DNA of 24,189 bases from a virus (lineage: Duplodnaviria; Caudoviricetes): the IMG/VR virus record IMGVR_UViG_3300049492_000076, positions 1 to 24,189 of that record; one strand, given 5' to 3'. A program made the translations under genes and the position numbers. Below are positions 4,215 to 17,371 of the stretch, piece after piece. Numbering within the stretch: position 1 is the stretch's first letter; each line of letters begins with the position of its first letter. The notes beneath the pieces were generated by a model that saw only the letters and a program-made list of their open reading frames with translations, had not been told where the DNA came from and made no database searches.

Positions 4215-4952
4215 TTAGCTTAAAACCGTGTTCAGAATAGCCTTCCTCCAGCTAGTAGGATTTAGCTTATTTTGGATTGCACTCATCAAGCAAGTTATTA
4301 CCATCCTTGTTATTTCCACAAGAGCGTGGACAAGCATAGATAAGATGCTTTTGAGCTTTTTTATCTCTTCCTGAAATGCTCGCTTAATGGTCACGTAAAG
4401 CAATCCAGCATTTCTTACTGTCGATTCCTGATCCAAGATTCGATCGTAGTGACTCTGTTCTAGATCTGGACCCCAAATGAAGTCATAGGCACCTTGGGCG
4501 TCCTTTAGGGTATCAAGATGATCTTTGTTGTAAACGCTCTTAAATACATTGGAGCATAAGTATATCCAATGCTCACGAACGATAGCGATCTCTTTTGGAT
4601 CGTGATGTTGCTCGGCATATTCCCATCCCTGATCTCTTATATCATAAAAGAGTTTGTAGTTAACCTTAATACCAAGCTTTTCTAACTTGGCGAAGAAGTC
4701 TGGATCCATTGGCATCACATCAATCGCTGTTCTTGTGATCTCGTCCAGTTCTGTCTTGAATCTATCCATCACCTTGCTCTTAACGGCATCCTGGTTATCC
4801 AATTCCTTCTTAACCTGAAGGATCTTGTTCTTAACGGAGTCAAAGGTTATGTCTCCAACGACACCTTTGACTTCTTCGACCTTATCTTTACCTAGCTTCT
4901 GAAATGCACCAAAAGTGCTAGAAGCTAATTTGATCAATGGCATCCAATTCAT
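4215..4952 (-). CDS. hypothetical helical protein (245 aa), last gene of the RT cassette
   Basis: SD AAGGAAGG and an A-rich leader before ATG; N-terminal LIKLASS motif; predicted helical/coiled-coil composition. Confidence 0.7.
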   Translation of the reverse strand: MNWMPLIKLASSTFGAFQKLGKDKVEEVKGVVGDITFDSVKNKILQVKKELDNQDAVKSKVMDRFKTELDEITRTAIDVMPMDPDFFAKLEKLGIKVNYKLFYDIRDQGWEYAEQHHDPKEIAIVREHWIYLCSNVFKSVYNKDHLDTLKDAQGAYDFIWGPDLEQSHYDRILDQESTVRNAGLLYVTIKRAFQEEIKKLKSILSMLVHALVEITRMVITCLMSAIQNKLNPTSWRKAILNTVLS

Positions 4953-4993: not shown

Positions 4994-5136
4994 GAGACTG
5001 CGTTGAGATGTGATTTTACTCACATCTGATTTCAGGCTTTTGCTTCCTTTGGCTTCTCAACAGTTAGTACGAATACTAATCCATCGAATCGTCCTTTGGT
5101 GACATCCGCCCTCTTATCCTTATTCAACACAGTCTC
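4994..5136 (-). ncRNA. candidate retron-like ncRNA (a1/a2-type closing inverted repeat)
   Basis: GAGACTGCGTTGA (4994-5006) is complementary to TCAACACAGTCTC (5124-5136) at 12/13 positions, and the mismatch is a G-U wobble on the minus strand. Internal hairpins AGATGTGA/TCACATCT (5006-5027) and UUAGUA-UUCG-UACUAA (5064-5079). Adjacent to a retron-type RT and RNase H. Confidence 0.55.
5032..5130 (-). CDS. unannotated small ORF, 32 aa (MLNKDKRADVTKGRFDGLVFVLTVEKPKEAKA)
   Basis: SD AAGGAG (5139-5134), then GTG (5130) and in-frame TTG (5127), open to TGA at 5034-5032; shorter than any ORF in the supplied track. Confidence 0.5.
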   Translation of the reverse strand: MLNKDKRADVTKGRFDGLVFVLTVEKPKEAKA

Positions 5137-5157
5137 CTTCCATTACTTCGTCACACG

Positions 5158-5790
5158 TCAATCAGCTGGGCAATTAAGACCACCTATCGCGTCTCTGACC
5201 AAGCGGTCGACAAACTTATTCCATTTGTCTCTCGAATGGCCCTTCACCCATTTGAATGATATGGAACGAAGTCTAGCGACTAAGCCCTCTATATTCATCC
5301 AAAGGTCGGAGTTGATCACGGGTCTTTTGTTTGTCCTCTGGTATCCATTAGACTTCCATAACGGAAGATTGTTTTTGAAATTATCAGTAACGTATTTGCT
5401 ATCACAATTTATAATGAGAGCGACATCTTCTGGCTCTACGCCAAACAGCTTTCGCGAGTTCTCTACATTAAACTCGATAGCCTTCAGTACAGCCATCAGC
5501 TCGGATCTGTTGGGAGTGGTGTTCTCGATGGCTCCGAAATTATGGGCCGAGAGGTTGATTCCGTCGACATATCCGAAGGTGATGAATCCCCAGGACCCTG
5601 AACTTCCACAGCAGCTTCCGTCTGTGTAACAGTTAACGACTGAGCATCTGTACTTTCCATTTCTGGAAGCGGTGGAGGAAGGGATTGAGATTTCAGCCTC
5701 TCCGCCCTCCTTTGCTCTATCCGTCTCTTGGCCTCTGCTGCTGGCAGTATCGACACCTCTGCCCTTCTCAGGGCGTCCATCATTCTCCAT
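5158..5790 (-). CDS. rnhA: ribonuclease HI
   Basis: CYTDGSC, TPNRSELMAV, NCDSKYV, WKSNGY, VINSDLW, WVKGHS and WNKFVDRL motifs give an intact DEDD set plus His. Domain spans about 5158-5640. Start uncertain (ATG 5790, ATG 5961, or frameshift from the RT). Confidence 0.92.
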   Translation of the reverse strand: MENDGRPEKGRGVDTASSRGQETDRAKEGGEAEISIPSSTASRNGKYRCSVVNCYTDGSCCGSSGSWGFITFGYVDGINLSAHNFGAIENTTPNRSELMAVLKAIEFNVENSRKLFGVEPEDVALIINCDSKYVTDNFKNNLPLWKSNGYQRTNKRPVINSDLWMNIEGLVARLRSISFKWVKGHSRDKWNKFVDRLVRDAIGGLNCPAD

Positions 5791-6851
5791 GCATGACTCT
5801 TCTGTGCTGACGCCACGAAGGATACGTGACCCCTTAGCTCCATGAGCCGTTGTTCTGTTAGAAGCTCCGGCTCCCTCACCGTCGCCTGATGTACTGCTGC
5901 TCGTAATCTCCTCCTTTCTTTGCGTGGTACACCAACCTTGTCTTTCATAACAAGTCCGCATATCCGCATCCGTTCGTTCCTAGACTTAATTTCTGTTTTA
6001 TCCGTGTTGATGGTGAACCCAAAGGCATTCAACAATTTTTTAGCTCTTTTATAAACCGCATCAAACAACTGCTCCTTGTTTAATACCTTGCTACTAAAAG
6101 CTAGATCGTCGGCATATCTAGTGTAAGTTATGCCAAGCCCCTTGCAGTACTCTGTAGTGTTTTTATCGAACCCTCGCATCACCAGGTTGGATATCTTCGG
6201 AGATGTCGCAAACCCTTGAGGGGTGTATCCATTGTAAGTTACAGAGTTTATTATTCTTTTGAATATCGAATTGAATTCTTTATCAGCGTCGTAACCAGGC
6301 ATGAACATAGACTTGATTTCTTCGCACACATAAGGATACTTGCCAGCAACCTTGTTCTCATACAATGATGGACTGCACCTTCCATCCTGCATTCTGCTTT
6401 TATAGATACAGTTCTGGCAAACAACCTTATTCCCAAAGAACACATTCCTGAGCATGTCTTCATTGATAGTATCGAAGAAGTCCTTCAGATCTATTGTTAA
6501 CAAAGACATTGCACCGACATGCATTTGAGCATTACCTACAATACTCCTGCCTTCTACAAATCCAAAAGCAGCATCGTGCTCCCTAAACTTATTAAGAAAC
6601 TTCCATGTGATGAATTTATGCAAGACCCTCAATTGCCTATCGGCTATTGTGATCTTGCGAGTCTTTCCATTTGGTTTTTTTAGCTCTAGGGTTCGGATGT
6701 GTGTGTTTTTGTCTTCCAGGATCTCGTCCACTTTATCGAGTGGTCTCCCGAACATTTGGGAGGACGAGAACAGCGAGTTATCGCTCAGTGTTTCTTGTAG
6801 AGAAAGTCTTGCTCTAGCCTCTTCCTTCGATTTGTCGTAGATCCTTGTCAT
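5496..6851 (-). CDS. retron-type reverse transcriptase
   Basis: KKPNGKTRKI, AFGFVEGRSIVGNAQMH (retron region-X NAxxH), IDLKDFF, PQGFATSPKISN, YTRYADDLAFS, GFTINTDKT, RICGL (variant of region-Y VTG); SD AAAGGAAA before ATG. Confidence 0.92.
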   Translation of the reverse strand: MTRIYDKSKEEARARLSLQETLSDNSLFSSSQMFGRPLDKVDEILEDKNTHIRTLELKKPNGKTRKITIADRQLRVLHKFITWKFLNKFREHDAAFGFVEGRSIVGNAQMHVGAMSLLTIDLKDFFDTINEDMLRNVFFGNKVVCQNCIYKSRMQDGRCSPSLYENKVAGKYPYVCEEIKSMFMPGYDADKEFNSIFKRIINSVTYNGYTPQGFATSPKISNLVMRGFDKNTTEYCKGLGITYTRYADDLAFSSKVLNKEQLFDAVYKRAKKLLNAFGFTINTDKTEIKSRNERMRICGLVMKDKVGVPRKERRRLRAAVHQATVREPELLTEQRLMELRGHVSFVASAQKSHAWRMMDALRRAEVSILPAAEAKRRIEQRRAERLKSQSLPPPLPEMESTDAQSLTVTQTEAAVEVQGPGDSSPSDMSTESTSRPIISEPSRTPLPTDPS

Positions 6852-7887
6852 CTTTTTCCTTTACCGCTAAAGCCCTGGCGTCAACCATGGTCTTAGCTTT
6901 GTTTTCGGTTAATATTGCCTTAGCAGATTCTTCGATAGGATCTGTCTCGTCTACTCCTAGCTTTTCCATTTCATACTCCTGGTTCAACTTGTTCAATACG
7001 TAATCAACAAAAGCATCAGTATCCTTCTTATCAATTACCCCATGAAAATAGTTGTCATACTTTGATCCAACAAATCCGAAATCAAGCTTGTCTATAGTTG
7101 ATTTAGATGAAGACCAGGGATTCTTCTCCAGCTCCACTATGGACACATTATTATTCTTTTGAGATATGCGTAAAAAGTATTTGCAATCACCATGCAAAGC
7201 CTCACAGTACTTAGGATACGACCAACCAAAGGGTTGGTGTAGTATCGACAATTCTTTTCCTATGAATGTGAGGCATTTACTAGACTTCCTCGCTCTTGAT
7301 ACCCATCCAGAAATAGACTCGTCACACTCAAGTGTTTTAACAATCAGATCCAAATCAAACTCACATCTTGATATCACTTCTATAGTCCTTGCGTAGGACA
7401 TAAGCGATGGAAATGTCTCTTCCATAAACACATACAGCGACTTCATCTTCGTCCCTCTAAAGGGAGAGAAGAACTCCTGAGCATTGGAGCAGAACTTAAC
7501 CAAAGATGACTTATGCATCGTCTTGCTGTTGAATGCTTTTCGGAAAGAGTCGAGGTTCTTCTCTGGTATCTTGCCTTGGTTAAATTTAAAGGCCAGGGAT
7601 GTTAGGCTGTCATTAGCGAACAATACAGACCCATCTATTATCTTCTCGTGTAGTTCCTTATTGAACAGGTTTGATACCTGTGTAACACATGGATCTTTTA
7701 TCAATGGCATTCCAATAAACCTCTTAGACTGGTCAGAGTCACTTATAGACAGCGCCCTTTCCCTCAACTCAGTCTCTGGTGTTAATGGGTTAAAAAATTG
7801 GAATCTCCAAACCTTCGATTTGGTTTGGTTCAGCAACATTGCCGATGCAACTAAAGCATCGGGAGATGTTGTGGAAATAATGAGCAT
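6814..7887 (-). CDS. hypothetical protein, possibly a degenerate DHH-like phosphoesterase fold
   Basis: SD AAAGGGG before ATG 7887; overlaps the RT start by 38 nt. N-terminus IISTTSPDALVASAMLL resembles DHH motif 1, but no DHH triad is visible. Confidence 0.55.
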   Translation of the reverse strand: MLIISTTSPDALVASAMLLNQTKSKVWRFQFFNPLTPETELRERALSISDSDQSKRFIGMPLIKDPCVTQVSNLFNKELHEKIIDGSVLFANDSLTSLAFKFNQGKIPEKNLDSFRKAFNSKTMHKSSLVKFCSNAQEFFSPFRGTKMKSLYVFMEETFPSLMSYARTIEVISRCEFDLDLIVKTLECDESISGWVSRARKSSKCLTFIGKELSILHQPFGWSYPKYCEALHGDCKYFLRISQKNNNVSIVELEKNPWSSSKSTIDKLDFGFVGSKYDNYFHGVIDKKDTDAFVDYVLNKLNQEYEMEKLGVDETDPIEESAKAILTENKAKTMVDARALAVKEKDDKDLRQIEGRG

Positions 7888-7963
7888 TAGCAACCCCTTT
7901 CACCATTGGTTAAATTACCCGTACAATAATGTGATTTCAGGTTTGTTGAAAAACTAACAGGAT

Positions 7964-16001: not shown

Positions 16002-16853
16002 ATGGGCGAAATTATCGGAACCCCTCTCATCAAGACTGCTGTTGACGGTGGATACAGTTCTTATCCAACATACAACGACTATCAGCCACAACAACAACAA
16101 GGATCCAATTGGGGTAAATCCGCATTAATGCTTGGACTTGCTGGTGGTGGTGCTTACGGCGCCCACAAGTTATACAAGGGCTTCACACAACCTAAAGTCG
16201 GATTCATCGGTAAGATGTTGGGTCACGCAAAAAACCCTCTGATTGCTGGAGCGATCGGACTTGCTGGATGGGGTGCTGCGAAATATGGCAAAGGCTTGGC
16301 TCGCGGTCTATCTACCATGAAAGAATTCAGACCTTTAGCCAAGTCTTTCATGGGTAATGAAGGGTATAGAAAATTTACAGAGGGTGCCACAGAGGTTAGT
16401 CCATTTGTTAAAGAGCAAGCAAGAAGACATTTCGGTCATAGGGGATCTGAGGGCTACGACGAGGTAATGAACGCTTGGAACAAAAGAAGAGAGTTTAGAT
16501 CTGGAAAGTCATTAGGTACGGTTCCTTTAAGCCAGAAGCAAAGAAACTTCCAACCTGGGGCAATGAAGCCAGCCCCGCGAAATTTAGATACCACTCCAGC
16601 TAGCGCTTGGGGTGCTGATGGAAAGAAAAGGGCTGATTGGAATCCTGATGATGTTGCCGGAACTCCAAACACAACGCCTAGTGCGTCTTTTGCGGCAACA
16701 GATAATTCTGCCGAAGTTGCTCGACAAGCCCGAGGTTTCGCCGATCCAAATGCCGCTAGTGAGACTATAGCAGCAACTCCAAAGACCGTTGGCGCCAAAC
16801 CAAAGAAGCAGCCAATCAATAAAACAAACCAAGGTAGTTGGGGTGGGGAATAA
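16002..16853 (+). CDS. Gly-rich protein with two hydrophobic segments and a disordered tail
   Basis: N-terminal LIKTAV; ALMLGLAGGGAYGA and LIAGAIGLAGWGAA. Confidence 0.7.
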   Translation: MGEIIGTPLIKTAVDGGYSSYPTYNDYQPQQQQGSNWGKSALMLGLAGGGAYGAHKLYKGFTQPKVGFIGKMLGHAKNPLIAGAIGLAGWGAAKYGKGLARGLSTMKEFRPLAKSFMGNEGYRKFTEGATEVSPFVKEQARRHFGHRGSEGYDEVMNAWNKRREFRSGKSLGTVPLSQKQRNFQPGAMKPAPRNLDTTPASAWGADGKKRADWNPDDVAGTPNTTPSASFAATDNSAEVARQARGFADPNAASETIAATPKTVGAKPKKQPINKTNQGSWGGE

Positions 16854-16855
16854 AC

Positions 16856-17371
16856 ATGTTAAACATTCAAGGCAAAAGAGTCATCAGCATGGCGTCCATC
16901 CAGTCTCTTGTGAAAAGAGCCGCAGATGAATCCGCAGCTCCAGCACCATCAAACACTAAGAGTGAGATGCTTGCCGAGCTCATTGTTGATATGCAAAAAG
17001 AGTATGGTGCTGCCATACAGTACATAAATCACGCCGCCATGATTGATGGCGCTGAGTTCGACTTCATCAGTCGCCACATACTTGAACATGCTCAAGAAGA
17101 GTTCGATCATGCTAAAGCTTTGGCTGACCGCATCCAGTTCTTGGGTGGAAATCCCGCCATAACCATTGAGACCGTTAAGGTGTCTGGTTCGGCGATAGAG
17201 ATGCTTAAGCAGGACCTAGAAGGCGAGAATGATGCTATCGCTCGTTATCGCAAGCGTATTGTTCAGGCTGAGTCTATTGGTGATTTTGGAACGAGCGAGT
17301 TGATTCGCGGAATATTGGCTGACGAAGAGAGTCATAAGAATGAACTTCAGACAACATTAAGAATGAGGTAA
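16856..17371 (+). CDS. ferritin-like di-iron protein (bacterioferritin-like)
   Basis: EYGAAIQY, EEFDHA, ADRIQFLGG.P, DLEGENDAI..Y, GD..T.ELI..ILADEESH give a complete E/ExxH/E/ExxH ferroxidase set. Start uncertain (16856 or 16889). Confidence 0.9.
   Translation: MLNIQGKRVISMASIQSLVKRAADESAAPAPSNTKSEMLAELIVDMQKEYGAAIQYINHAAMIDGAEFDFISRHILEHAQEEFDHAKALADRIQFLGGNPAITIETVKVSGSAIEMLKQDLEGENDAIARYRKRIVQAESIGDFGTSELIRGILADEESHKNELQTTLRMR

Follow-up and report, generated by a model that had tools for sequence, protein, structure and literature searches.

The reverse transcriptase module and its genomic setting

The window, by which we mean the whole stretch of DNA analysed, is a viral record of 24,189 bases estimated to be 13% complete, so that about 87% of the phage genome is absent. 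It encodes a terminase large subunit and a head protease, and its minus strand carries a run of four ORFs: a degenerate DHH/DHHA1-like protein of 359 aa (6814..7893, recognized by tblastn and by alignment with relatives), a retron-type reverse transcriptase (RT) of 451 aa (5496..6851, PF00078), an RNase H ORF with its domain at residues 109-259 (5158..5961, PF00075 and tblastn) and a 245-aa ORF without known relatives (4215..4952). The last has coding-like codon blocks; it matched only itself among proteins of 134-429 aa, and gave no tblastn match below E 0.6 in 27 loci of the RT family described below. The locus under study is the 205-nt spacer between the RNase H ORF and the 245-aa ORF, on the minus strand; the only other gap adjoining module genes measures 70 nt. 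Elsewhere in the window, an IS605-family TnpB (OrfB) gene is inserted among the phage genes (330-1535) and a ferritin-like gene lies within the morphogenesis region (16838-17371).

The RT has an intact YADD motif and NAQMH in region X, and thus the NAxxH feature of retron RTs; H111 is invariant across the 84 aligned sequences (83 relatives and the window RT). In region Y, ICG replaces VTG both in the window RT and in the family consensus, the G being kept and the VT not. The best PADLOC and NCBIfam models are retron RTs, with scores under the NCBIfam cut-offs, and the RT_VI PADLOC model ranks low (138 bits vs 202 for the best). About 90 relatives share 33-52% identity, after which scores drop to general retron RTs. 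No close relative came up when viral contigs were scanned with one protein at a time, the RT or the terminase, and the 30 records of cultured phages with an RT match all lie below 60% identity (23-26% for the 15 listed). Residues 140-180 form a cysteine-rich insertion specific to the family, in which C145, C148, C159 and C176 are invariant and which possibly binds metal.

The DHH-like protein has tblastn matches in 22 of the 27 family loci (E<1e-10). Its relatives give weak Pfam DHH/DHHA1 matches and the window protein none; in the alignment the DxDG, DHH and GGGH motifs of the relatives are replaced, and the protein is likely a retained pseudo-enzyme. Judged by differences between related strains, of which 15 of the 17 listed are silent (10 of 12 in the RT, 5 of 5 in the DHH-like gene), both genes are under purifying selection. 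RNase H also has tblastn matches in 22 of the 27 loci, and its active-site residues, like those of the RT, are intact. Its frame is -1 relative to that of the RT, whose tail of about 90 aa overlaps it, and holds no ATG, GTG, TTG or CTG from 5790 to 5499 on the minus strand; in relatives, RNase H begins about 5 residues ahead of YTDG. Strain differences down to 5739 leave the RT sequence unchanged but are non-silent when read in the RNase H frame, where one of them creates a stop. An RT-RNase H frameshift fusion, or an unusual RNase H start, is possible; inspection of the overlap by eye revealed no classical slippery heptamer.

An inverted repeat enclosing a 32-codon ORF

Shortly after the RNase H gene, AAGGAG (5139-5134) is followed by ACT, a GTG at 5130 and a TTG at 5127, and the frame runs to a stop codon at 5034-5032. 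The RNase H stop precedes the start of the resulting 32-codon ORF (5032..5130, minus strand) by 27-30 nt; from the TTG, 3 nt later, 31 aa would be made. The Shine-Dalgarno-like (SD) AAGGAG is included in ATGGAAGGAGA (5133..5143, minus strand), which equals the 5' consensus of the family RNA alignment. The start codons, the stop and the 32-aa peptide are exactly as given in the original prediction. So is the 5' arm of an inverted repeat (5124..5136), which covers the GAG of the SD and both start codons. It pairs with a 3' arm (4994..5006, minus strand) over 13 bp with one G-U, a wobble that exists only on the minus strand. When repeats of 13 bp with at most one G-U and arms 40-300 nt apart were searched for in the 24-kb window, this one was unique on the minus strand and the plus strand had none; ten whole-strand shuffles contained 8, 0, 1, 0, 0, 1, 1, 0, 0 and 0. 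An 18-base scan for the 5' arm region elsewhere returned three stretches lacking the 3' arm, RT, RNase H and DHH-like gene, which we ascribe to chance, and an Rfam search gave nothing below E 0.3. Among the sequencing runs, X2 holds no piece that covers the spacer, and X1 may be where the window itself came from.

The 143-nt element bounded by the arms folds, as minus-strand RNA, at -51.3 kcal/mol (z -6.6, 0 of 200 shuffles), its ends having been set after the arms were seen. The z-score is -4.3 for the plus-strand RNA and -1.3 for the plus-strand DNA; for the interior without arms it is -4.4 as minus-strand RNA and -1.4 as plus-strand DNA. The ORF nearly fills the element. It contains a predicted 14-bp hairpin with a UUCG loop (5056..5088, minus strand), and its stop codon is followed by 5 bases, a hairpin of 7-8 predicted base pairs stacked on the 3' arm (5007..5026, minus strand) and the 3' arm itself, 25 nt from the stop. 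The arm duplex alone amounts to -20.2 kcal/mol. Opening the start region (-14..+12) is predicted to cost 16.7-18.3 kcal/mol with the 3' arm and 4.0-4.5 kcal/mol without it. The claim that long-range pairing blocks initiation is thus borne out by prediction, pairing with the 3' arm adding 12-14 kcal/mol.

Small genes and RNAs of the phage family

A family with a module of DHH-like, RT and RNase H genes, an order that the window shares, emerged from profile scans, with 20 viral, 7 metagenome and 2 genome loci; the metagenome scan covered 5 of 64 parts, and a family-specific profile recovered the same 20 viral loci and gave the 2 genome loci. We found no description of this phage module in those parts of the literature searched by full text. 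PMC10638138 reports an RT of unknown role in Staphylococcus jumbo phages, whose RNase H gene has a locus tag far from that of the RT.

A small ORF adjoins the RNase H or RT stop in all 26 family loci with downstream sequence. Relative to that stop, the starts of the 22 distinct small genes range from -56 to +64, apart from an uncertain one at -128, and the window ORF, at +27/+30, falls within this range; the aligned products of the 22 have 30-84 aa and mostly an amphipathic core, and a search with the small-protein profile yielded 10 proteins. A separate RNA lies after the small-gene stop, small gene and RNA being two units. It opens with a 5' arm followed by a G and two hairpins, continues with long variable hairpins and closes with a 3' arm and a terminator, with the motif CCCCGACCCC ahead of the 3' arm in most loci; the genes downstream differ among loci. 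The 5' hairpins covary in 20 sequences, with 89% of cells paired against 42-53% in slid controls and a score reached by 0 of 500 shuffles. With a model built on them, the held-out L163 scored 29.3 bits, whereas L015 was found only weakly, at 14.5 bits. A G stands just 5' of the 3' arm (a2) in 18 of 20 loci, a count for which anchors were set by hand and in which some helices are short. This arrangement is the retron geometry as described in PMC7736814 and PMC8989520. The presence of the RNA makes the small-gene start at most 1.3 kcal/mol harder to open in all 17 relatives examined.

Several further features of these loci were recorded. The CGAC core of CCCCGACCCC recurs in the terminator hairpin loop of many loci (L002-L021, L083, L086, L087), and in several a CAGYCAGG-like word occurs on both sides of the complement of this core, which permits alternative pairing. 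L017 (6220-6320) and L020 (6256-6350), both without RNase H, have a minimal family RNA of about 85 nt that lacks CCCCGACCCC; their terminator loop, GTAAAA, is also the loop of the window 3' hairpin. In L006, a 12-bp long-range helix covers the small-gene start, with its partner near the end of the coding region; such helices measure 6-10 bp in the other 21 loci, and the 12-bp one is probably due to chance.

The window belongs to a separate branch of this family. In a quick tree of 48 RTs, from which 6 near-duplicate or cut loci were left out, the window RT groups with its closest relative, P0002 (52% identical), at support 96, and the 38 other family rows group separately (97). By this tree the window RT is a deep sister branch and the most divergent of the family. 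All fetched loci lie on the sister branch, so that conservation of the ORF could be tested against that clade only; in this weak test the conservation called for by the original prediction fails in every relative fetched.

Is the ORF then a gene? Length by itself says little, as an ORF of at least 30 codons occurs in 1898 of 3000 shuffles of the 205-nt spacer; an SD, a start and at least 30 codons occur together in 62 of 3000, or in 280 of 3000 when AAGGAG is kept. The SD energy (-7.6/-8.8 kcal/mol) is inside the range of the family small genes. The codon log-odds of the ORF, 10.1 bits, is higher than in 71% of 154 true coding blocks and than in every one of 175 open off-frame blocks, and is reached by 48 of 3000 shuffles of its own sequence; none of the 38 open frames in family ncRNAs comes near it, their scores being at most 1.7. 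This signal is one of amino-acid composition and not of synonymous bias, 2004 of 5000 synonymous recodings scoring as high.

The peptide itself has no relative in the collections searched: there were 0 homologues at E<=0.001 among 1.84 billion representatives, none in the Atlas, and across 185 loci tblastn gave no match below E 0.25. The family small-protein HMM gives the peptide 0.5 bit and the core profile a z of 0.0. Family members left out in turn score above 13 bits on the HMM in 16 of 22 cases and at most 8.3 bits in 6 of 22, and 4 of the 22 small proteins defined by position fail the core profile. The hydrophobic core that had been predicted is present as a stretch, LVFVL; however, this stretch is spelled by the palindromic UUCG hairpin, and the peptide lacks the amphipathic helix of the family, its helical moment of 0.26 being the lowest of the set (others 0.46-0.85). 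No other frame of the window matches the HMM, the best lying far away at 7.7 bits (E 0.16). Two candidates for the missing small protein, the RT tail and the N-terminal part of the 245-aa ORF, were rejected (0.1 bit or no HMM match; core z 0.5). The idea of a hidden small gene thus gains from position and codon score and loses from the missing homologue and family helix. On these sequence criteria we lean slightly towards the ORF being real, that is, translated.

The RNA features of the family were sought in the same spacer. ATGGAAGGAGA ranks first of 48,354 positions with an 11-column matrix of the family 5' motif, which comprises the a1 end, the branching G and the start of hairpin 1. The score is 15.0 and the runner-up elsewhere reaches 14.5; with 13 columns the match drops outside the top 12. 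Like retron RNAs, the element is closed by terminal inverted repeats, here of 13 bp. Against the family RNA model the spacer scores 6.2 bits (E 0.2), which is no match; the CCCCGACCCC motif was not found in the element; and the outer a1/a2 duplex is worth -2.7 kcal/mol vs -7.5 to -17.7 kcal/mol in 19 loci. Neither 5' hairpin is present, the match being confined to the first 11 bases. The arms end in an A opposite a C, with the first G 4 nt further, and there is no G-G branch site. Where retrons have one long msd stem-loop next to the 3' arm, the window has its hairpin of 7-8 bp. The window 3' end was also tried as the family 3' motif and rejected (score -3.4, rank 394). With the match to the family consensus limited to these 11 bases, the SD of the ORF may have been inherited as an RNA motif, may work as a true SD, or may do both.

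The element could accordingly be read as a divergent, non-coding template RNA of the RT, with the ORF as a by-product and the apparent SD as the family 5' motif. The first rank of ATGGAAGGAGA fits this reading, as do the position of its G, 21 nt after the RNase H stop in the window and 8-22 nt past the small-gene stop in 20 of 21 family RNAs, the frequency with which a start and at least 30 codons arise once AAGGAG is given, and a hydrophobic stretch that is a hairpin palindrome. In the family, moreover, a start codon stands just behind the G in only 5 of 21 RNAs, opening unrelated ORFs of 2-64 codons. Against it stand the coding-like codon score and a motif match that fails with 13 columns and barely exceeds its runner-up. 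The non-coding reading also requires the loss of the small gene present in 26 of 26 relatives examined, while no other window frame matches the small-protein HMM. We regard it as rather unlikely, although it deserves serious weight; if the ORF is due to chance, the finding shrinks to a divergent RNA of the family.

The spacer may instead be foreign to the RT module, having come with the 245-aa ORFan while the RNA of the RT lies elsewhere or was lost; it would then be a fold-back mRNA like those of type I toxins, or a promoter/operator region. The missing family RNA match and the variation between loci of the genes past the family RNA agree with this, and the matches listed include no terminator-like site between the element and the 245-aa ORF. 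Read as DNA, the 3' hairpin spells a palindrome without mismatch, TGTGA-N6-TCACA (5009-5024), of the form known from CRP boxes, and a 16-nt word of the spacer (5024-5039) recurs, 14/16 identical, in the gap upstream of the operon (7929-7944). However, with one mismatch allowed the palindrome is expected by chance (56 of 100 shuffles), and the 16-nt pattern was derived from its own two copies; neither was seen at the corresponding places in relatives. Neither strand of the spacer has a sigma-70-like promoter among the matches listed, the G-U pair speaks for the RT strand, and the RT is under purifying selection. Attenuation of the 245-aa gene can be rejected, because holding the ORF open shifts its start by less than 1 kcal/mol. 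A foreign spacer is thus improbable in our judgement. With RT and DHH-like genes under purifying selection and the other gap only 70 nt long, the element is, within the part of the genome that the window covers, the best candidate partner of the RT; since the RNA model, CCCCGACCCC, the outer duplex and the G-G site are unmatched, it is by position that it is a candidate.

Control of the start codon and likeness to known systems

The original prediction held that reverse transcription and RNase H cleavage could free the ribosome binding site, and several published findings bear on this. The msDNA of Retron-Vpa2 is reported to relieve the repression of a small protein, and to act in trans as well (10.1101/2025.10.22.683967). 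The small gene of Retron-Sen3 is likewise flanked by an inverted repeat, but its product is described as constitutive and HTH-controlled (10.64898/2026.04.27.721009); because a similar repeat goes with a constitutive protein there, the layout does not imply an RT switch. Retron copying is described as starting at the G beside the arms and covering the region between them (PMC8989520), the arms being left uncopied (PMC8989520 and the Eco8 preprint), and RNase H as removing the template and sparing non-template regions (10.64898/2025.12.04.692459). As far as the structural accounts go, part of the arm duplex, with two bases of the second arm, is visible in the mature msDNA of Eco2 (PMC12405507), and neither arm is resolved in Eco8. 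By inference, the arm duplex of the window would survive RT and RNase H with the 3' arm still paired. The 25 nt between stop codon and 3' arm would moreover mean that any copy longer than this leads RNase H to cut inside the ORF. An RT switch would need either a very short copy or action in trans.

RT activity could thus free the start if only the last hairpin were copied and RNase H cut between the stop codon and the 3' arm, or if RT-DNA annealed in trans and forced the arms apart. The repeat over the start is real, the active-site residues of both enzymes are intact, Retron-Vpa2 offers a precedent, and the template region of about 30 nt in L017 and L020 makes a very short copy possible within the family. 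The stable and presumably uncopied arms, the missing G-G site, the short distance from stop to arm and the small-gene starts that the RNA leaves unsequestered in 17 of 17 relatives all speak against such a release, and no HTH gene is found among the ORFs beside the RT. We consider an RT switch very improbable. Its most explicit version, in which one RNA is both the template and the message for a 32-aa effector and a short-hairpin copy lets the phage RNase H sever the 3' arm and turn the peptide on, is an equally long shot; if true, an RT-gated translational timer would have arisen independently of type VI retrons, and without an HTH.

We tentatively favour, as a reading that could well be wrong, fold-back silencing of a likely 32-aa gene, independent of the RT, on a dual-use RNA in the last 205 bases of the operon. 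It is favoured because it is the simplest account that keeps all the facts shown. In the window lineage, small gene and retron-like RNA would have become a single dual-use RNA. The RNase H stop lies 27-30 nt upstream, and ribosomes that leave it could initiate the peptide only as long as the 3' arm, about 120 nt further on, is not yet transcribed; the arm would then fold back over the RBS and start codon, silencing the ORF without the RT. Trimming of the 3' arm would be an alternative release. The folded RNA would be silent and then likely serve as the RNA partner of the RT, and the peptide would act as an accessory of the module, made in rationed amounts, and not as a toxin released by the RT. 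All together, the structure is real, the ORF is plausible and the RT switch is unsupported.

The original prediction likened the locus to type VI retrons. What stands is a small ORF in a structured RNA beside a retron-type RT, with RBS and start sequestered (a prediction in the window) and an inverted repeat whose 3' arm lies past the stop codon, as in Vpa2 and Sen3; derepression by RT-DNA is not supported. The window differs in having no HTH, in an RNA downstream of the RT instead of the SP-HTH-RT order, in its DHH-like and RNase H partners, in being phage-encoded, and in an RNA of 143 nt vs about 470 nt with no separate msr-msd arm before the ORF. Judged by its gene content and order, the window system is not a type VI retron.

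With canonical retrons, as classified into types I-XIII in the main text of PMC7736814, where the word DHH is absent, the window RT shares NAxxH and YADD, and the RNA of the relatives shares the a1/a2 arms with a G behind a1, the pair of 5' hairpins and the long hairpins on the 3' side. What sets the system apart is an ICG where retrons have VTG, an RNase H of its own and a DHH-like partner, and the window element lacks the branch G and the long msd. In the type I toxin mRNAs aapA3 and hok, sequence far downstream is described as occluding the SD, and 3' trimming as releasing it (PMC6733600). The window resembles them in an ORF of about 30 aa and, by prediction, in an SD occluded from far downstream and a stable, inert full-length fold. 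Unlike them, it has no promoter or terminator of its own that we could find (nor an antisense promoter in the spacer among the matches listed), and the hydrophobic stretch of its peptide is only 8 residues long.

The closest system remains the phage DHH-RT-RNase H module, with the same gene order, RTs 40-52% identical and a similar neighbourhood. The window departs from it in an RT on a sister branch, a DHH-like protein that lost its motifs, an RNase H start that is hard to place, the absence of the conserved RNA motifs, and a small gene and RNA that are not separate. The family is a retron-like module of large uncultured phages, with its own RNase H, a DHH-like partner and an RNA of strong covariation. 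If small gene and template RNA have indeed merged in the window, they would show that the hybrid-RNA design of type VI retrons can be reached in a second way, and would offer a 143-nt test case for control of translation by an RT versus a simple fold-back.
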